DNA from: an uncultured Candidatus Saccharibacteria bacterium
GTDB taxonomy: Bacteria > Patescibacteriota > Minisyncoccia > Phycocordibacterales > PALSA-1337
Direction: 5' to 3'
Length of the DNA: 64,000 nt
Assembly: GCA_964394505.1 (NCBI GenBank)
Contig: CAYMXR010000001.1
Location: 9,878-73,877 of the forward strand
The position numbers were made by a program, and so were the translations under genes. A model generated the notes under the pieces. The model saw only the letters and a list, made by a program, of their open reading frames with translations. It did not search any database and had not been told where the DNA came from. Shown here in pieces: positions 6,130-63,540 of this stretch (position 1 is the stretch's first letter; each line of letters opens with the position of its first letter).

Positions 6130-6150
6130 ATCTCGAGTTTTTATCGAGAG
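6130..6150. repeat. CTCGAG-family hairpin TCTCGAGTTTTTATCGAGAGA, nested in a larger AGGGTT...AACCCT palindrome
   Basis: Seen directly in the sequence. Confidence 0.5.
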
Positions 6151-6195
6151 AACCCTCAGGGTTGAGCCGTGAAATTAGAATAATTGGAATTAAAC

Positions 6196-11833: not shown

Positions 11834-12586
11834 TTACATCAACACCTTCGATAGGGCAACGACTGCGGCTGTCTCAGCACGCAAAATCTGTTTACCAAGG
11901 CTGCAAATCGAGACCTTGTTAGCGTGAAACATGTCTAGCTCAGCCGTCGACCACCCTCCTTCTGGCCCTATGAAAACAGCTAGCGACTGTCCGGCGAGGT
12001 CTGACCTCGCCCCACCATCTGTATGAAAAGCAACACCTCTGATAGATTCTGAGCCATCATTTGCGACAGGTTGAGAAAAAACCTGGGCGAGGTCAGACCT
12101 CGCCGAATGTACCACCGGTACATCACCCCTCCCACACTGTTCACTCGCCTCTACTGCAATTTTTTGCAGGCGTTCCATATTCAAATCTTTTTTTTCACTC
12201 CGTTCTGTGATAACTGGAACAATATCGGTAACACCGAGCTCGGTTGCTTTTTCCGTAATCCACTCAAATTTATCTTTTTTTACGACCGCCTGATATAAGA
12301 CAACTTTTCGCGTTGGCATAAATCGGCTAGGTCGGACCTCGCAGACTGCTAAATGCAATTGGCTCCCTCCGCGAGGTTTTTTACCCCGAGCGAAGTCGAG
12401 GGGAACCTCAAGGAGAACACATTCAAAATCATTACCAGACCCATCGAAAACTACAATCTTGTCGCCAGAACCCAAACGGAAAACTCGACTGATCTGATTT
12501 ACAAGTTCAGGCGAATCGATAACCAACTCTTTTTTTGAGCCAATTTTTTCTGTGATGTAAAATCGATGAAGTCTCATTTTGATCAC
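11834..12586 (-). CDS. rsmE: 16S rRNA (uracil1498-N3)-methyltransferase RsmE, carrying three in-frame palindromic-repeat insertions
   Basis: MRLHRFYI...VVFDGSG...IGPEGGWS...RAETAA motifs. The gene is GC-rich relative to its neighbours. Confidence 0.75.
   Translation of the reverse strand: MIKMRLHRFYITEKIGSKKELVIDSPELVNQISRVFRLGSGDKIVVFDGSGNDFECVLLEVPLDFARGKKPRGGSQLHLAVCEVRPSRFMPTRKVVLYQAVVKKDKFEWITEKATELGVTDIVPVITERSEKKDLNMERLQKIAVEASEQCGRGDVPVVHSARSDLAQVFSQPVANDGSESIRGVAFHTDGGARSDLAGQSLAVFIGPEGGWSTAELDMFHANKVSICSLGKQILRAETAAVVALSKVLM
11993..12011. repeat. Palindromic repeat GGCGAGGTC-T-GACCTCGCC (copy A, in-frame in rsmE, encodes ARSDLA)
   Basis: Perfect 9+1+9 palindrome. Confidence 0.8.
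12086..12104. repeat. Palindromic repeat GGCGAGGTC-A-GACCTCGCC (copy B, in-frame in rsmE)
   Basis: Perfect 9+1+9 palindrome. Confidence 0.8.
12328..12346. repeat. Degenerate copy of the palindromic repeat (GCTAGGTCGGACCTCGCAG), copy C, in-frame in rsmE
   Basis: Imperfect palindrome sharing the GGTCGGACCTCGC core. Confidence 0.5.
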
Positions 12587-16736: not shown

Positions 16737-17033
16737 CTACTTCTTGAAGCAGACAATGCCAAGACTATTGATACCGATTACCCCTTTGGCCACATTGATT
16801 ATGCTGATGTATTGATCTTCCCTTTCGTTATGGGATATCAGTCCCAGGAGAAACGCAGCCAACGAACACATAAACCCGACACCTAAACCAAACAACGCTG
16901 ACCGCCAAAGATCAAAACCCAACGACAGTGTACCCACCAGCCCGCACACCAATGCAGACCACGGGGTAAATGACATAAAAGCCATACTGAACCAGAGCGC
17001 AGCCTTGAAATGCAGCAGTGTCAATTTCTTCAT
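16737..17033 (-). CDS. Small hypothetical membrane protein
   Basis: Three hydrophobic segments in 98 aa. Confidence 0.35.
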   Translation of the reverse strand: MKKLTLLHFKAALWFSMAFMSFTPWSALVCGLVGTLSLGFDLWRSALFGLGVGFMCSLAAFLLGLISHNEREDQYISIINVAKGVIGINSLGIVCFKK

Positions 17034-24959: not shown

Positions 24960-25880
24960 TTAGCCACGCTTCTTCCCATGAAACATTTTATGGACCTTTC
25001 GGAGTTCCGCATCAGTCACATGAGTATATATTTGCGTTGTATTTATATTGGAGTGACCAAGCAGCATCTGGACCGAACGAAGATCAGCGCCGTTGGAGAG
25101 TAGGTCGGTGGCGAACAGATGCCTCAAAACGTGAGGCGTAACCTTTTTAGAAATACCGGCTTTGATGGCACAGTATTTGATAATCCTCTCAACCGAGCGC
25201 GGATCGAGAGCTAGATCGCCATTCTTGGCGCTTTCCCGACTTAACCTGATAAATAAGGCGTCATCTACATCTACTCTCTTGTCCAGATATTCTTTTATAG
25301 CTTTCTTTGCTTCAGAAGAGAGAAATACGACACGGATTTTTTCTCCCTTACCTCGAATAGAGAATTCATCTGCATCAAGATCTAGATCACGCGATAGGGA
25401 ACAGAGTTCTGAGACACGCAATCCTGTTGAAAAAAGTAACTCTAGTATGGCTTTATCTCTTAATGATTTCAGGTCTTTGCCATCCGAGGAAGCAAGCAGT
25501 CTTTTTAATTCTTCTCCAGAAATAAGATCCAAATGCCTCTCTCCAACTTTGGCTAGCTCTATATGCTCTGGTGAAAGAGACTTGACCCCTCTCTTTACTA
25601 GGAATTTCAAAAATGCCCTAAGAGCAATCAGGTAATAATTCTGAGTTTTCTTTTTCAGAGTCTTGCTGTCAGGATTTTTACCGCTTGGCTGACGGTTCAA
25701 CCATAGATGAAACTCTCGCACCATTCTATCTGTTATATCTTCGGCTCTTTTTAGCTTGGAATAATCTATAAATCGAGTCAAATAGTGATCATAGTTCCGC
25801 ACCGTAAGCAGAGAACGGCCTTTTTCGATCTCTATATATTCAAGAAACTGTTGTTTTAGATCATGAAGATTTTGCGACAT
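24960..25880 (-). CDS. xerC: Tyrosine site-specific recombinase, XerC/XerD family
   Basis: HVLRHLFATDLLSNGADLRSVQMLLGHSNINTTQIYTHV catalytic region (R..H..R..Y). Confidence 0.85.
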   Translation of the reverse strand: MSQNLHDLKQQFLEYIEIEKGRSLLTVRNYDHYLTRFIDYSKLKRAEDITDRMVREFHLWLNRQPSGKNPDSKTLKKKTQNYYLIALRAFLKFLVKRGVKSLSPEHIELAKVGERHLDLISGEELKRLLASSDGKDLKSLRDKAILELLFSTGLRVSELCSLSRDLDLDADEFSIRGKGEKIRVVFLSSEAKKAIKEYLDKRVDVDDALFIRLSRESAKNGDLALDPRSVERIIKYCAIKAGISKKVTPHVLRHLFATDLLSNGADLRSVQMLLGHSNINTTQIYTHVTDAELRKVHKMFHGKKRG

Positions 25881-26411: not shown

Positions 26412-26933
26412 ATGTCAATAATTAAACACAAGGAGCAAAGGGTAGGCGTCTTTATCGATGCCCAAAACCTTTATCATAGCGGTAAAAATCTATATCATTC
26501 AAAAGTAAACTTCGGCCAAATAGTCAAAGACTCACTGGACGGTCGCAAACTAGTGCGTGCCGTAGCATATGTAATCTCGACAGAATCGGGCGAAGAAAAT
26601 GCTTTCTTTGATGCTTTAACAAAGATGGGCATTGAGACCAAAGTCAAAGATCTTCAAGTCTTCAGTTCTGGTGCAAAAAAGGCGGACTGGGATGTCGGAC
26701 TAGCTATAGATGCGGTCAAATTATCACCAAAACTAGACTCGGTTATCTTGATAACGGGGGACGGTGACTTCGTGCCATTGGTAGAATATCTTCAGATGAA
26801 TCAAGGTTGCCAAGTTGAGGTAGTATCTTTCGGCAAATCCACATCTGCAAAGCTGATAGAATCCGCCGACAACTTCATGGATCTAGATGAAAGTCCAAAT
26901 AAATACCTACTCAGAGCAGGAGGGAAGAAGTAA
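26412..26933 (+). CDS. NYN-domain (LabA-like / DUF88) predicted RNase
   Basis: VFIDAQNLYHS...GDGDFVPL pattern. Confidence 0.7.
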   Translation: MSIIKHKEQRVGVFIDAQNLYHSGKNLYHSKVNFGQIVKDSLDGRKLVRAVAYVISTESGEENAFFDALTKMGIETKVKDLQVFSSGAKKADWDVGLAIDAVKLSPKLDSVILITGDGDFVPLVEYLQMNQGCQVEVVSFGKSTSAKLIESADNFMDLDESPNKYLLRAGGKK

Positions 26934-26936
26934 TCT

Positions 26937-26982
26937 CCTTGAGGTTTCTCTCGATAAACACTCGAGATAAATAAACTCAAGG
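26937..26982. repeat. Nested hairpin containing a member of the CTCGAG hairpin family (TCTCGATAAACACTCGAGA), with an outer CCTTGAGG/CCTCAAGG stem
   Basis: Inverted repeats directly after the NYN gene stop. Confidence 0.45.
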
Positions 26983-27045
26983 AACAAAAAAGCGCCTTTC
27001 ACCCGGAGGTTACTTGGCGCGGTCCACTAAATGGAGCCGGTAGGC

Positions 27046-27669
27046 TCAGCTTCTGGAACAGTAATGAACCGAGGAATCGGCCTGTGGGTCATGAGTCCCA
27101 AATGTGAATGGCGTCGTCAATTCATCATAACCCTTGATCGACGGAAACAATCTCTGCATCTGTTCGTGCCGTCTCCGCCATTTGGCAAAGAGGTCACGAG
27201 CCTTTATGGGATCCTTCTCCTGAATAGCGCAGATTGCCTCTAATTCAGAAACCAAGGCTTTCTCGATCGCCTTCTCAACGTCGTCGAGCGCGCTCCAGTC
27301 TTCAAACTGTCTTCCGGTGACGCTTTCGACATACTGGATCGCTTCGATGAAGTCGACCGCGTTCTGCCAGTACTCAGAGCGACCGGCGAACGGCCAGGAA
27401 AACAGCCAAGTAATGACGGCACAGACCACCACAAACAGACCAACTATGACCCATGCCATTACAGACCATGATGTATTCACAAAAACTCCAAAGGCGGCAA
27501 AGGAGTAGCCGAATACGACGAAGGAAATCACCGCCACCAAAGCCACAAGCCACCGAGCTCCGCTCTTCGCTCTTTCATGAAGAAATACGGCTTCAACCAA
27601 ATCGTCGATCTCTGTCGGGTTCCAATCCGCATTAGAACCATAGGCAATTATTCTTCTTGCAAGTTTCAT
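27046..27669 (-). CDS. Hypothetical membrane protein encoded in a GC-rich (~50%) islet
   Basis: 207-aa ORF with 3-4 TM helices; the many overlapping ORFs on both strands reflect the high GC, so strand choice is uncertain. Confidence 0.35.
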   Translation of the reverse strand: MKLARRIIAYGSNADWNPTEIDDLVEAVFLHERAKSGARWLVALVAVISFVVFGYSFAAFGVFVNTSWSVMAWVIVGLFVVVCAVITWLFSWPFAGRSEYWQNAVDFIEAIQYVESVTGRQFEDWSALDDVEKAIEKALVSELEAICAIQEKDPIKARDLFAKWRRRHEQMQRLFPSIKGYDELTTPFTFGTHDPQADSSVHYCSRS

Positions 27670-27874
27670 AAAACCACCTCCTCAATACCCCAATTCACAA
27701 TGCCAGGCTTTCAGGCGGACACATCGGTTTCAACCGACACGTCGTTACAAGCAAAGAGATGGGTAGGGGAAATTTACGCACATCTAGTGTGAAATTACAT
27801 CTAATAATGGTGTCTGTCAAGTTCAATTAAAATCACGGGCGTGTTAAATTGGTATTGCTTGGCGATGTCGCTTG

Positions 27875-27895
27875 TCTCGAGTTTATCGAGAGAGA
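27875..27895. repeat. CTCGAG-family hairpin TCTCGAGTTTATCGAGAGA, immediately followed by a GACCTCGCC half-site
   Basis: Seen directly in the sequence. Confidence 0.5.
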
Positions 27896-28013
27896 CCTCG
27901 CCCGAAGCACCTTATCAATTAATACTCACCCCCAGATACACAGGTTTTTGTGGCAAATTTTTGCAAAGCGTTTCAAAAACAAAATTTGCAATCTGTAATC
28001 TCGGGATGAGTTT

Positions 28014-28044
28014 CGCTTCCGGCGAGGTCGGACCTCGCCGGAAA
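28014..28044. repeat. Extended perfect palindrome TTCCGGCGAGGTC-G-GACCTCGCCGGAA (copy D), 10 nt upstream of the pnp ATG
   Basis: 13+1+13 palindrome. Confidence 0.8.
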
Positions 28045-28054
28045 CAACAAAAAA

Positions 28055-60664: not shown

Positions 60665-62356
60665 CTAATCTTGTAAAGCGATAACCCTCTCAAGTTCTTC
60701 CAAAGAAGTAATACCTTGAAGAGCTTTTAATACTCCATCTTGACGCATGTTCAAAATACCTTGACCCTTGGCGGCGGCCCAGATCTCGCGGTCGTTCGGA
60801 TTCATCTCTACCGCATCTTCGATTTTTTTATCAGTTAATATTGCCTCGTATACTCCAATTCTACCTTTGTAGCCGGTGTTGTTACATTTGTCGCAACCTA
60901 CAGGTATCCAAATTTTTGACCTTTCGCTAGGTACTAAACTTTTATCTTCTATTTCATTTATTATAATTTCTACCTCTTTTTGCATCTCTCCTTCGAGTGG
61001 AATTTCCTTTCTACAATACAGACAAAGTTTACGTGCCAATCTTTGGGCCATCGCCACGCGGATAGCCGAGGTTATGACTTTTGAATTGACTCCAAGGTCT
61101 ATAAGACGGGGAAATGTACCAGCAGCGTTATTTGTGTGCAATGTCGAGAAGACCATGTGACCCGTGAGAGCAGAATTTACGGCAATACTTGCGGTTTCAT
61201 TGTCGCGGATTTCGCCGATCATTATTACATCCGGATCTTGGCGGACCGTAGCTCGCAAACCTTCGGCAAAGTTGTAACCTTTTTCATTGACTTGAGTCTG
61301 TACTATCCCTTCTAGGTGGTATTCGATAGGGTCTTCAAGGGTGATAATTTTTAGATCAGGTGAATGAATCTTTTTTAGGAACGAATAGAGCGTTGTTGTT
61401 TTTCCAGAACCTGTAGGTCCAGTGGTTAGGATCATGCCATCTGGGCGAGTCATTTCTTTGAGTAAAATGTTGAGCAGTTTTGGATGTATACCTAAACTTT
61501 CTAGTGGAACATCTATCGATTTTGGATTGAGAAGACGCATCACAACAGATTCATTGTAAGCTCCGGGGAGGATCGATACGCGCACTTCGATATCTCCAAT
61601 TGCGAGTTTTATACTAAACCTTCCATCTTGGTTGTCTTTTTTGATATTCAATTTCATTCCCGAGATGAGTTTGATACGCGAAAGGAGTAGGGCATATGTG
61701 TCATTGTCAAAGCGGATAATGTCATGAAGAACACCGTCTAGGCGATAGCGAAGCAAGGCATAACCCTGCTCTGGTTCGAAATGAATGTCGGAGGCATCTA
61801 ATGCAAGAGCTCCAGCCACGGATGTTTCCAAAATTCTAGAAACCCTGTAACTCATTCGGGTCGCAAGTAATGTTTGGAGAATCTTAACCACATCAGGCAA
61901 GGTCTTGGTTTGGTTTATTATCTTAGTGATTTCTTCATTAGAAATTTCTAGTGAACCAGCTTTGCTTTCGTAAGCAAAAGAGAGGTCTTTGTAACCAAGC
62001 CAAGCTTTCTCTAGGCTTTGAGTGGAAGCTATGTTTAATTCTGGGGTATAACCTTTGGCTCTAAGTCCTTCTAGAACGGCGACAACTTTTTCGTCTTCTG
62101 GGTTTCTAGATGCAACTTTGATTTTTTTATCAACAATGGCGTACCCGGCCACTTGGGCATTTCTAGCGGTTGTTTCGTCTATCAATCGCAGAGCGTCGGT
62201 GTTTATGTTTATCGAGATAAGATTGACATAATCGAGGCCGTATTTACCGGAAAGAACCTGAACGAGATCCTCCTCTTCTTTGTGTAAAAGATCATTCAGT
62301 TTTCTCTTTTGTTTGTCTTCGTCGAATGTGATGGTCATGTAAACATTATAGCGCAT
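60665..62356 (-). CDS. Second GspE/PilB-family secretion ATPase (retains the C-terminal tetracysteine motif)
   Basis: Walker A GPTGSGKTTTLY; CLYCRKE...CDKCNNTGYKGR. Confidence 0.85.
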   Translation of the reverse strand: MRYNVYMTITFDEDKQKRKLNDLLHKEEEDLVQVLSGKYGLDYVNLISININTDALRLIDETTARNAQVAGYAIVDKKIKVASRNPEDEKVVAVLEGLRAKGYTPELNIASTQSLEKAWLGYKDLSFAYESKAGSLEISNEEITKIINQTKTLPDVVKILQTLLATRMSYRVSRILETSVAGALALDASDIHFEPEQGYALLRYRLDGVLHDIIRFDNDTYALLLSRIKLISGMKLNIKKDNQDGRFSIKLAIGDIEVRVSILPGAYNESVVMRLLNPKSIDVPLESLGIHPKLLNILLKEMTRPDGMILTTGPTGSGKTTTLYSFLKKIHSPDLKIITLEDPIEYHLEGIVQTQVNEKGYNFAEGLRATVRQDPDVIMIGEIRDNETASIAVNSALTGHMVFSTLHTNNAAGTFPRLIDLGVNSKVITSAIRVAMAQRLARKLCLYCRKEIPLEGEMQKEVEIIINEIEDKSLVPSERSKIWIPVGCDKCNNTGYKGRIGVYEAILTDKKIEDAVEMNPNDREIWAAAKGQGILNMRQDGVLKALQGITSLEELERVIALQD

Positions 62357-62400: not shown

Positions 62401-62427
62401 GGAGGGCGAGGTCGGACCTCGCCCTCC
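62401..62427. repeat. Extended perfect palindrome GGAGGGCGAGGTC-G-GACCTCGCCCTCC (copy E) in the divergent spacer
   Basis: 13+1+13 palindrome. Confidence 0.8.
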
Positions 62428-62532
62428 AATCGATCTTGACAAGTGAGGTCTATCCGTGCTAGTATCATAAGCGAATCTCAAGGCTGTGTGGTCTTGGGGA
62501 AAAACAACAATTCAGAAATCGGAGAACTTAGA

Positions 62533-62826
62533 ATGAAGACTCAATATTTTTTGTCGGCACTGGTCGCTTTACTGGTGTGCACCTCGGGGTGCGGGACTTT
62601 CAACAACGAGACAGTGAAGTTCACGGATACCAAGTTCGATCCTGGGACCACAAATGTGGTGTCCAGGACTGAGTTCGAACAGGTTAACCGATCTCGGTCG
62701 TTTAACCAGCCTGGTTCGTCCGTCGGCCACGACGGCACGTTTCTTCGGTTTCGGGCTTCGGTTGGGGGTGGAGCTCCGTATCAACCTATCTGGATCCAGC
62801 AGGGTCCCTACAGGTACTCCCAATGA
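62533..62826 (+). CDS. Small secreted or lipoprotein-like hypothetical protein in a GC-rich (~55%) islet
   Basis: MKTQYFLSALVALLVCTSGCG signal; GC content far above the flanks. Confidence 0.35.
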   Translation: MKTQYFLSALVALLVCTSGCGTFNNETVKFTDTKFDPGTTNVVSRTEFEQVNRSRSFNQPGSSVGHDGTFLRFRASVGGGAPYQPIWIQQGPYRYSQ

Positions 62827-62894
62827 ATGGTTTATCAGTTCGGAACGCCGATCAGTAATCGGTACCGAAATGACTAACCTCCCAGCTTCACTTC

Positions 62895-62935
62895 GGCCGC
62901 TTTCTCCATTGGGGAAGGCGGCCTCAACTTTTTAT
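62895..62935 (+). terminator. Hairpin GGCCGC-loop-GCGGCC followed by a T-run
   Basis: Stem-loop after the 62533 gene. Confidence 0.35.
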
Positions 62936-63117
62936 GAGACTATTTCTAGTTGATTTGAGATGGTAATAATAAGGCGAGGGCAGTAAGATTTTGAGCCATT
63001 AGAATGTAGCAGACCATTGACTTTTCTTTATATATAGTATATAATGCTACCATAAGATTAATTTCAATACACGGCTTAATGGAGGCCTAAATCAGATCGG
63101 GTAATCACGAAAATTAT

Positions 63118-63540
63118 ATGAAAAACACAAATAATTCAAAGATCATCCTTGTAGCATTGGCAGTAATGCTCGCTTTTGGCGTTGTTTCTATTATGCCAGA
63201 AAGTGCAAATGCTGGTTACGGCTACTCTGAATCTGGTTATTATGGTAGTGGTGCCAACTATTACGGTTCTTATTATGACGGCAGTGGACACGGTTATTAT
63301 TCTGGTGGCATGTATGTTCAAGGTTTAGCCGGACAACAGTCACCATGGTACCCATCTATAGTTGTGCCGATCGAGAGTCAAAGTTTCTTCATAGAACAAA
63401 CTTGGAGAAATTACGGCTTTAGTAGTCGTGACCTTAAACCTTTTTCTAACTCCTACTCTAGTCAATATTACAACTCCTACTCAAATTCCTACCATCCAGT
63501 ACAAAATTCTGGTGGCTTAAGAGGTGGTTACGGATATTAA
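63118..63540 (+). CDS. Secreted Gly/Tyr/Ser-rich low-complexity protein
   Basis: Signal peptide, then GYGYSESGYYGSGANYYGSYYDGSGHGYY and a C-terminal SYSSQYYNSYSNSY run. Confidence 0.4.
   Translation: MKNTNNSKIILVALAVMLAFGVVSIMPESANAGYGYSESGYYGSGANYYGSYYDGSGHGYYSGGMYVQGLAGQQSPWYPSIVVPIESQSFFIEQTWRNYGFSSRDLKPFSNSYSSQYYNSYSNSYHPVQNSGGLRGGYGY

Follow-up and report, generated by a model that had tools for sequence, protein, structure and literature searches.

Does a GC-rich patch in an AT-rich bacterial genome betray DNA recently taken up from elsewhere? The question is raised by two short islets in a 64,000-nt stretch of DNA (the window; contig CAYMXR010000001.1 of assembly GCA_964394505.1, positions 9,878 to 73,877 of the forward strand) from an uncultured Candidatus Saccharibacteria bacterium. 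Islet 1, at about 27.0-27.8 kb, lies between a gene for a NYN-domain protein and pnp, the gene for PNPase, and holds a gene that we call X; islet 2, at about 62.4-62.9 kb, lies beside a pilB-like gene and holds a gene that we call lipo97. An initial annotation took both for horizontally acquired micro-insertions. Our analysis leads us to favour, with moderate confidence, another answer, namely that both islets are single-gene units for small, lineage-restricted, fast-evolving envelope proteins, and that these units are old, positionally fixed and actively maintained at a high GC content.

The two islets do stand out in base composition, and here the initial description, which put them at about 50-55% GC, was accurate. 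The mean GC content of the window is 39.95%, and when it is scanned in sliding windows of 300-800 bp the two highest values fall on the islets (~27.0-27.6 kb and 62.3-62.95 kb), at ~53% versus 40% for the window. With 400-bp windows GC reaches 0.535 at 27001 and 0.532 at 62551 (z-score 3.4 in both cases), and with 600-bp windows 0.523 at 26991 (z 3.6) and 0.510 at 62321 (z 3.2). Codon usage, measured against the 56 open reading frames (ORFs) of the window that were taken as genes (mean GC content at third codon positions, GC3, 0.37), proved atypical as well: X has a GC of 0.50, a GC3 of 0.56 (z +2.9) and a codon-usage score with z -2.4, and lipo97 a GC of 0.54, a GC3 of 0.63 (z +3.9) and a score with z -4.6, which makes these two genes the poorest fits to the synonymous codon usage of the window. 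A third gene (16737-17033, minus strand; GC3 0.58, z +3.1) shows the same anomaly. The GC content expected from amino-acid content and genome codon usage is 0.44 for X and also for lipo97; about 40% of the excess is due to amino-acid composition and about 60% to synonymous codons ending in G or C, with third-position A depleted in these genes (0.10-0.18 versus 0.33) and G enriched (0.29-0.37 versus 0.16). The numerous overlapping ORFs on both strands of each islet, also noted at the outset, are there because GC-rich sequence yields them.

Islet 1 and its left flank can be read as follows.

26412-26933, plus strand: NYN-domain gene, left flank of islet 1 (Pfam PF01936, E 3e-35).
26986-27020, minus strand: terminator of X, an intrinsic-like hairpin (GCGCC...GGCGC) followed by UUUUUU.
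27046-27669, minus strand: gene X, 207 amino acids (aa), a predicted hairpin protein with two transmembrane (TM) segments; ORF with an upstream ribosome-binding site, GGAGGTGG.
27670-27785, minus strand: 5' leader of X, ~115-125 nt, conserved and with a predicted structure.
27792-27820, minus strand: putative sigma-70-like promoter of X (TTGACA, 17 nt, TAATTT), read from the sequence.

Islet 1 thus appears to be a single transcription unit that has a promoter and a terminator of its own. In all six loci in which X is known (see below) the -35 hexamer is unchanged; a consensus promoter scan did not list this promoter. The terminator hairpin, which the initial annotation had rightly placed after the gene, is modest in energy (z -1.2 versus shuffled sequences), identical in all alleles and nearly identical in the sister-species locus L125 (loci are labelled with L and a number throughout). 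Since GC-rich islands in AT-rich genomes are often structured RNAs, and since related contigs carry differing gene calls over islet 2, the islets might be taken for structured non-coding RNAs whose ORFs are accidental. This is exceedingly improbable. The alleles of X differ by in-frame insertions and deletions only (3, 6 and 9 nt) and have ratios of nonsynonymous to synonymous divergence (dN/dS) of 0.2-0.5, from which we conclude that X is protein-coding; the predicted signal peptide, putative lipobox and motifs of lipo97 recur in other species at 39% protein identity; and in Rfam neither islet has a match at the gathering threshold, with nothing beyond chance matches on nearby palindromes even at E <= 1.

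Is X an insertion, and how old is it? Our comparison set comprised 80 loci of other Patescibacteria species representatives, obtained by a PNPase-based scan of the species representatives in GTDB, which places the window in the Patescibacteria (Paceibacteria/Parcubacteria group) and in which the best match was 86% identical to the window PNPase. The order S15-NYN-pnp is deeply conserved (NYN precedes pnp in about 70 of these loci), while X was undetectable in all 80 (PNPase at most 86% identical). The gap between NYN and pnp measures 158-340 bp in seven of the nine nearest species, versus 1122 bp in the window, and the remaining two species have other content there: a toxin-antitoxin-like pair, as read from the ORFs, in L015 and unrelated ORFs in L052. 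Because these two gaps carry unrelated genes, the NYN-pnp spacer can be described as a hot spot for accessory genes. Relative to the 80 species, and on that time scale, X is an insertion.

Closer relatives tell how far back the insertion goes. Among 5.8e9 proteins only four clusters of X were found (100, 69, 61 and 54% identical), and a profile search of 1.84e9 representatives added two further members only, at 28-32% identity, so that the X family has six members. All six lie between NYN and pnp, and no homologue was found outside this locus in either collection. The four closer loci are from the same species (PNPase 99.2-99.8% identical; NYN 100% identical in L005 and L006), and the two distant ones from sister species (PNPase 94% and 91%; NYN 96% in L125). 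X is therefore present in every sampled member of a narrow clade (PNPase >= 91% identical), always at this one site and accompanied by the same leader and terminator. A tyrosine recombinase nearby has the same position in L005 and L125. Because two sister species share site, leader and terminator, the insertion of X is old, not recent. The GC anomaly goes with it: GC3 of X is 0.46-0.56 in all alleles and orthologues versus 0.31-0.39 in neighbouring genes, and the hosts of all six genes are AT-rich (PNPase GC3 0.31-0.38).

These results bear directly on the idea that both islets came in recently, as horizontal micro-insertions from a GC-richer donor, and have not yet ameliorated. The idea would account for the atypical GC and codon usage of X and lipo97, and it would fit both the absence of X from the same spacer in 80 species and the unrelated genes that this spacer holds in L015 and L052. 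We nevertheless consider it very unlikely, given the shared site, leader and terminator in sister species, the lack of any homologue outside the locus in the two collections, and the finding that synonymous sites are saturated between X alleles, yet GC3 stays at 0.46-0.56. For islet 2 it is contradicted by a lipoprotein gene that is syntenic and GC-rich in many species (see below).

Nor did flanking hairpins carry X in, as a comparison with the sister species makes clear. Two elements bracket the gene.

26936-26983: compound hairpin B, which contains a CTCGAG-type element at 26941-26967 (-19.4 kcal/mol, z -5.4).
27875-27899: CTCGAG-type hairpin C, the inverted partner of B, marking the right edge of the segment that varies between alleles.

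Together they place a 19-nt inverted repeat around X (26941-26959 and 27881-27899, 95% complementary), and the variable segment ends inside the arms of this repeat, at the X promoter and terminator. The CTCGAG-type element (GAGGKYTCTCTCGATAAAMNCTCGAGA, 26-27 nt) occurs in three copies in the window (6131-6157, 26941-26967 and 27875-27899), each of them intergenic and near a gene end. Both hairpins are absent from L125, which has X, and for this reason we do not regard them as the ends of a mobile cassette. A transposon, integron or cassette resembling a miniature inverted-repeat transposable element was considered for X and rejected on the same ground, that L125 has X without either repeat arm.

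The alleles of X have diverged far beyond their surroundings. Between conspecific strains X is 54-69% identical where the flanking proteins are 99-100% identical, and between sister species 28-32% where PNPase is 91-94% and NYN 96% identical. An alignment of the locus is identical from pnp through the palindrome in its leader and hairpin C, and divergence starts at ~27839, in the X promoter. It is highest in the N-terminal 100 codons of X, with a synonymous divergence (dS) of 0.86-2.4. The central block of X has a dS of 0-0.06 among the window, L005 and L008, which is the level of the backbone, and of 0.23-0.36 versus L009; the C-terminal part is patchy (dS 0.08 between the window and L008, 0.34 between the window and L005), and the terminator is identical again.

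A map of single-nucleotide polymorphisms (SNPs) between the window and the 108-kb conspecific contig L005 shows that X does not vary alone. The region 30.2-37.6 kb and the 5' part of pnp are almost free of SNPs (dS 0-0.007), and a divergent patch extends over ~23.6-27.9 kb and includes X, NYN, S15, a Xer-like gene and an exonuclease-family gene. Within it NYN has a dS of 0.26 with a nonsynonymous divergence (dN) of 0 (100% aa identical), S15 a dS of 0.77 and the exonuclease-family gene a dS of 0.30; X is the fastest-evolving gene of the patch, with a dN of 0.23. We therefore rejected an explanation in which X alone is variable in a clonal frame, as its neighbours lie in the same divergent patch. 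The right edge of the patch is sharp (~27840-27900, at the X promoter and hairpin C), and because three independent alleles have the same right edge, we suggest a preferred crossover zone there. A second, small divergent patch lies in the 3' part of pnp (dS 0.18). The frame is otherwise clonal, and the X alleles, at the edge of a divergent patch within it, are mosaics formed by recombination. Flexible islands that are exchanged by homologous recombination, with peaks of synonymous SNPs at their boundaries, have been described before (Lopez-Perez, Martin-Cuadrado & Rodriguez-Valera 2014, PMC4033161).

Two differences in gene content were seen in L005. Its XerC/D-like tyrosine recombinase gene carries an intein (Intein_splicing and LAGLIDADG domains; L005 11782-13962), and the window copy (24960-25880) has none; and in L005 the exonuclease-family and poly(A) polymerase genes are separated by an extra island of ~4.8 kb, with two TrmB-family genes and AbiEii.

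Hypervariability in a near-identical frame might also arise in place, through a diversity-generating retroelement or through gene conversion from silent cassettes. Diversity-generating retroelements are common in candidate-phyla-radiation bacteria, and the depletion of third-position A in X could be seen as pointing the same way. Several observations make such in-situ diversification highly improbable, however. No stretch of X was found a second time, be it as template or as silent copy, in the 64-kb window, where the scan of the window proteins for a reverse transcriptase was not exhaustive. The variation includes insertions and deletions, synonymous sites, promoter and leader, unlike the adenine-specific mutagenesis of a short C-terminal repeat, and the neighbouring genes in the patch diverge too, which fits imported tracts. 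Retroelement and silent cassettes were accordingly rejected for X, there being no repeat of it in the window and the variation being of the wrong type.

The most stable part of the X unit precedes the gene. Across the six loci, the conservation of promoter and leader far exceeds that of the coding sequence; the leader motif CCCCTACCCATCTCTTTGC is identical in five of the six, and a second motif, GCCTGGCATTGTGAAYTGGGG, is exact in five and has two mismatches in L009. The structure predicted by RNAalifold has a closing helix (CCCC/GGGG), an inner helix that is invariant, and an apical hairpin. This last shows four compensatory pairs and a covariation score of 0.20 versus 0.13 in shuffled alignments, a value reached by one of 500 shuffles, and sliding the partners of the hairpin against each other destroys the pairing. 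The leader RNA is thus probably structured, the six sequences being suggestive only. It has no second copy in the window. The leader hairpin and promoter of the L005 allele are of the type found in L125, that is in a sister species, and the window and L008 share another type, which points to a polymorphism shared across species or to introgression.

The leader also contains an upstream ORF (27741-27779, minus strand), which reads MCVNFPYPSLCL and stop in the window and has 15-17 codons in L005, L125 and L126. This ORF overlaps the conserved leader motif. As a cause of the leader conservation, an upstream ORF of 12-17 codons was considered and not adopted: the window and L008 have a truncated version, L009 has a frame-shift in it, and the conservation of the leader extends over every codon position. 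The ORF has no obvious ribosome-binding site and is probably not what keeps the leader conserved.

Does islet 2 have the same history? Its parts are listed below.

62436-62465, plus strand: putative promoter of the lipoprotein gene (TTGACA, 18 nt, TAGTAT, with TG), matching at 10/12 positions.
62533-62826, plus strand: lipo97, a predicted 97-aa secreted protein with a lipoprotein-type signal peptide, identified by a homologue and shared motifs.
62895-62932, plus strand: predicted intrinsic terminator of lipo97, with a 13-bp stem (62895-62923) including 9 GC pairs and a T-tract (-24.7 kcal/mol, z -4.9).
63118-63540, plus strand: p140, a Gly/Tyr/Ser-rich, probably secreted protein of normal GC, with the motif VPIESQ..EQTWRNYG.

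Like islet 1, islet 2 appears to form a single transcription unit between a promoter and a terminator of its own, the latter again as initially annotated. The predicted lipo97 protein has one N-terminal hydrophobic segment, which ends in LVCTSGC, and X has two hydrophobic segments, so the description of both products as small hydrophobic or secreted proteins was borne out. A protein-database search with lipo97 returned nothing, not even lipo97 itself. Related contigs are annotated over islet 2 either with a 99-aa ORF on the strand of p140, which we matched by length and position to 62654-62953 of the window, or with a 112-aa ORF on the opposite strand. Because 62533-62826 is the frame with comparative support, these existing gene calls (62443-62953) are probably wrong.

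That support came from relatives fetched by a PilB-based metagenome scan, where the homologue appeared only by tblastn on the loci themselves. Most related species (PilB 70-82% identical) have, upstream of pilB and in divergent orientation, a small gene whose predicted product carries a lipoprotein-type signal peptide. With lipo97, the homologue in L097/L098 (PilB 82% identical) shares 39% identity over 89 aa (E 2e-8). Six other species have in common with lipo97 a predicted signal peptide, a putative lipobox and the motifs DRSWS..NQ and F.RF.A.VGGG. In L098 (3309-3767) a single 152-aa lipoprotein consists of a lipo97-like N-terminal part and the motif VPIESQ..ETWRRYG; L108 has the two-gene arrangement of the window. 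As L098 joins parts that the window holds in two genes, lipo97 and p140 would seem to have undergone a split or fusion between species. Since syntenic, GC-rich lipoprotein genes lie upstream of pilB in relatives, islet 2 is best read as a positional orthologue and not as an insertion. All five conspecific contigs sampled carry it unchanged, including one from a sample with the 61% X allele; these contigs were chosen by identical PilB or p140 and are thus biased to close relatives. The position of the gene beside pilB suggests a role of the lipoprotein at the cell surface or in the pilus.

Composition is the second point on which the relatives are informative. The GC3 of the lipoprotein genes is 0.62 +/- 0.06 and does not track the GC3 of pilB, which ranges from 0.32 to 0.65 (slope -0.1). 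The most AT-rich hosts show the largest excess (+0.17 to +0.32); in two hosts of intermediate GC it amounts to +0.09 to +0.10, and where the host is GC-rich it is close to zero or just below. One way to read this is at the level of a shared pool: envelope genes would be exchanged across the species of a clade that spans 32-58% GC, and their GC3 would reflect the clade average (~50-60%). The compression of lipoprotein GC3 to ~0.6 in hosts whose pilB GC3 spans 0.32-0.80 is what such a pool would produce, relatives at 53% GC do exist (L015, L013), the X region is a clear recombination mosaic, and the two leader types, with L005 and L125 on one side and the window and L008 on the other, agree with exchange. 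On the other hand, all six known X genes are in AT-rich hosts and none was found in a GC-rich relative, and lipoproteins that are 39% identical where PilB is 82% identical do not suggest recent exchange. We regard a pool-level explanation as unlikely, though it is one to be reckoned with.

What, then, keeps these genes GC-rich? In the account that we favour, of old single-gene units held at a high GC content, the ancestor of a narrow Paceibacteria clade would have gained X in its S15-NYN-pnp spacer; the gene would have a promoter of its own, and its transcript would begin with a conserved, probably structured leader. Alleles of X would be exchanged among strains by homologous recombination, with crossovers in conserved stretches: towards pnp the promoter of X, within the gene the central WPF..RS..W..AV.F..AI.Y.E.V block, and towards NYN the terminator. 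Islet 2 would hold the local form of a lipoprotein gene that diverges rapidly and is found with the gene of the type IV pilus ATPase in many species. In both, a gene-specific force would keep GC high, most likely a recombination-linked GC bias or, alternatively, selection on the codon or mRNA composition of small proteins targeted to the membrane. That the excess is maintained, and is not a foreign leftover, follows from its survival through saturated synonymous divergence in AT-rich genomes and from its age, which predates the split of three species. A link between recombination and GC content in bacteria has been reported (Lassalle et al. 2015, PMC4450053; Torrance, Diop & Bobay 2024, PMC11879095), and we infer that such a bias is the likelier force at X because recombination at X is demonstrated.

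Several points weigh against this account. No direct evidence ties recombination to the GC excess, and the mechanism of the link between the two is itself disputed (PMC11879095). NYN and S15 recombine too, yet they are not GC-rich or are much less GC-enriched, and with islet 2 identical in five strains nothing shows recombination there. The six X loci come from short metagenomic contigs, with a long flank in L005 only. As to the proteins, the putative lipobox, [TG][SGT]GC, is kept in seven species, where it and the signal peptide were judged by eye and by hydropathy, and neither X nor lipo97 nor the product of the third GC-rich gene (p98) had any match above threshold in Pfam, NCBIfam, PADLOC or PHROGs.

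A bolder version of this account would make the X module a dedicated diversification locus, in which leader, central block and terminator serve as crossover anchors, the two-TM cassette is swapped among strains and sister species, the GC content, here and in the other small envelope genes, is the footprint of recombination that is chronically high and GC-biased, and the leader is perhaps a new cis-regulatory RNA. We hold this to be doubtful.

What X does can be approached through its predicted architecture. Hydropathy and an AlphaFold2 model give ~35 cytosolic residues at the N-terminus, then two hydrophobic helices with a loop of 4-6 residues between them, and lastly a three-helix domain, again cytosolic, whose first part is the most conserved block of the family, WPFAGRSEYWQNAVDFIEAIQYVESVTGRQFEDWS. 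The model has a mean predicted local distance difference test score (pLDDT) of 65, and a fold search with it gave non-specific helical matches only; a profile search against PDB sequences returned chance matches only, and neither the X protein profile nor the leader motif had a match in the viral contigs scanned. Variation in X is greatest in the N-terminus and the two membrane helices. Because the variation lies there, and because almost nothing of the protein would be exposed outside the cell, our low-confidence guess is a role in interaction or conflict at the level of the membrane, perhaps as a pore-forming effector, as an immunity protein or in the specificity of oligomerisation. A phage receptor seems less likely.

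One specific form of this guess, compatible with the explanation favoured above, is that X serves an abortive-infection or conflict system as a pore-forming, SLATT-like two-TM effector and that its divergence reflects an arms race. Size and architecture would fit (~200 aa, two TM helices and then a cytosolic helical part). The NCBIfam family SLATT_1 (NF033634) matches four of the six X family members, at 12-14 bits (best 14.1; best E 0.029), the matches of the members P0001 and P0007 spanning most of the model, including the two TM helices and the next helix, and the PADLOC model RTasSLATT matches X at E 0.059. The SLATT_1 scores are to be set against a cut-off of 41 bits, however, and no Pfam SLATT family was listed for X at E up to 10. 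Other two-TM families match weakly too, PspM in three of the six members as well as holins, suggesting hydrophobic bias, and, as said, the fold search was non-specific. Moreover, there is no sensor or nucleotide-signalling partner (SMODS/CD-NTase, reverse transcriptase, SLOG) beside X, whose neighbours are S15 and the housekeeping genes NYN and pnp. With scores below the cut-off, no Pfam SLATT match and no partner gene, X does not qualify as a SLATT member, and we think it distinctly unlikely that it acts as one.

Other features of the window touch the islets without explaining them. An extended palindrome, GGCGAGGTC-N-GACCTCGCC, is present in five copies (11995-12009, 12088-12102, 12327-12341, 28023-28037 and 62407-62421), versus 0.02 expected by chance. 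Three of the five lie inside one 250-aa ORF (11834-12586, minus strand) that forms the third-highest GC peak, and these recall palindromic elements inserted in frame in coding regions. The other two are near the islets, in the pnp leader (28017-28043), just before the ATG (-22.7 kcal/mol, z -4.2), and at islet 2.

62401-62427: copy of the extended palindrome, with the start of the pilB-like gene on one side and the islet-2 promoter on the other (-26.7 kcal/mol, z -5.9).
27905-28054, plus strand: 5' leader of pnp, conserved across species and outside the islet.
16737-17033, minus strand: p98, a small membrane-protein gene of 98 aa by hydropathy, GC3 0.58, with its own terminator.

At the spot of the pnp-leader palindrome L125 and L126 have different hairpins, and contig L008 ends with a variant copy of the palindrome. 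The initial annotation had set the islets beside palindromes (28017-28043, 62401-62427) and a CTCGAG hairpin (27875-27899), which are real but lie in conserved flanks and not in the GC-rich variable segments, and no hairpin bounds lipo97. The palindromes are a phenomenon separate from the islets, that of small species-specific palindromic elements.

The pnp leader itself keeps a motif, CAGATA..CAGGTTTGA...AAATCTG, in eight species, and in the window and L010-L017 it follows the pattern ..CGCC-YCCAGATA-RRCAGGTTTGA .. hairpin .. CAAAGCTGAAATCTG-RAGGCGA. A strong hairpin, differing in sequence between species, stands just before the pnp ATG, and Rfam has no match for it. We regard this region as a candidate autoregulatory leader for PNPase. 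For p98 only two protein clusters are known (100% and 87% identical); the L127 allele owes most of its divergence to the 5' end (78-84% nt identity), and the flanks are mostly 90-100% identical.

Taken as a whole, the proposal of horizontally acquired micro-insertions survives in part: the composition is atypical and X is a lineage-specific insertion, but neither islet is recent, islet 2 is no insertion and mobile ends are missing. The orthologous loci in relatives have largely the same content, namely X in the sister species and a lipoprotein gene upstream of pilB; the 80 more distant species are without X. A GC-rich patch in an AT-rich genome is thus not by itself evidence of recent transfer. 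The GC anomaly here is a stable, gene-specific property, which for the lipoprotein stays constant across hosts of very different GC, and this persistent set-point, along with a leader much better conserved than the hypervariable gene after it, is what we find most notable about the two loci. Should a recombination-linked GC bias be the cause, the islets would let a debated process be tested cleanly in nature, in a lineage that is uncultivated and has tiny genomes. The analysis also defines a six-member, one-locus, very fast-evolving two-TM family with a conserved and probably structured leader, and a lipoprotein family beside pilB, with a correction of the gene calls over islet 2.

How do the islets compare with systems already described? 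The palindromes of the window resemble repetitive extragenic palindromic (REP)-like elements and Rickettsia palindromic elements in being short, species-specific and located at gene ends, with three inside an ORF; they differ in that they flank the islets and do not explain their origin. X resembles the SLATT two-TM effector domain in its ~200 aa, its N-terminal two-TM hairpin followed by a cytosolic helix and the collinear weak matches of four of the six members, and departs from it in scoring far below the curated cut-off, in having no Pfam SLATT match and in standing beside no sensor or nucleotide-generating gene. With recombination-associated GC enrichment (PMC4450053, PMC11879095) X shares intragenic recombination and a GC3 above that of the genome, independent of optimal-codon use; here, however, the excess (+0.19 to +0.25 GC3) is limited to three small genes, and the recombining NYN and S15 show less. 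X and lipo97 both fall in known categories, those of fast-evolving, lineage-restricted envelope genes.

The replacement flexible islands (PMC4033161) are the other close parallel for X. As in them, each strain has a divergent, envelope-related version at the same locus within a near-clonal frame, and the substitutions in the flank are mostly synonymous (NYN dS 0.26, dN 0), with one sharp boundary. Unlike them, the X island is a single gene of 0.8 kb and not a multi-gene polysaccharide or appendage cluster, its versions are homologous alleles and not different gene sets, and its product is predicted to expose only ~4-6 residues outside the membrane. Replacement flexible islands are, moreover, usually GC-poor, and X is GC-rich. 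With these differences, the X locus is a replacement-type flexible locus of one gene.

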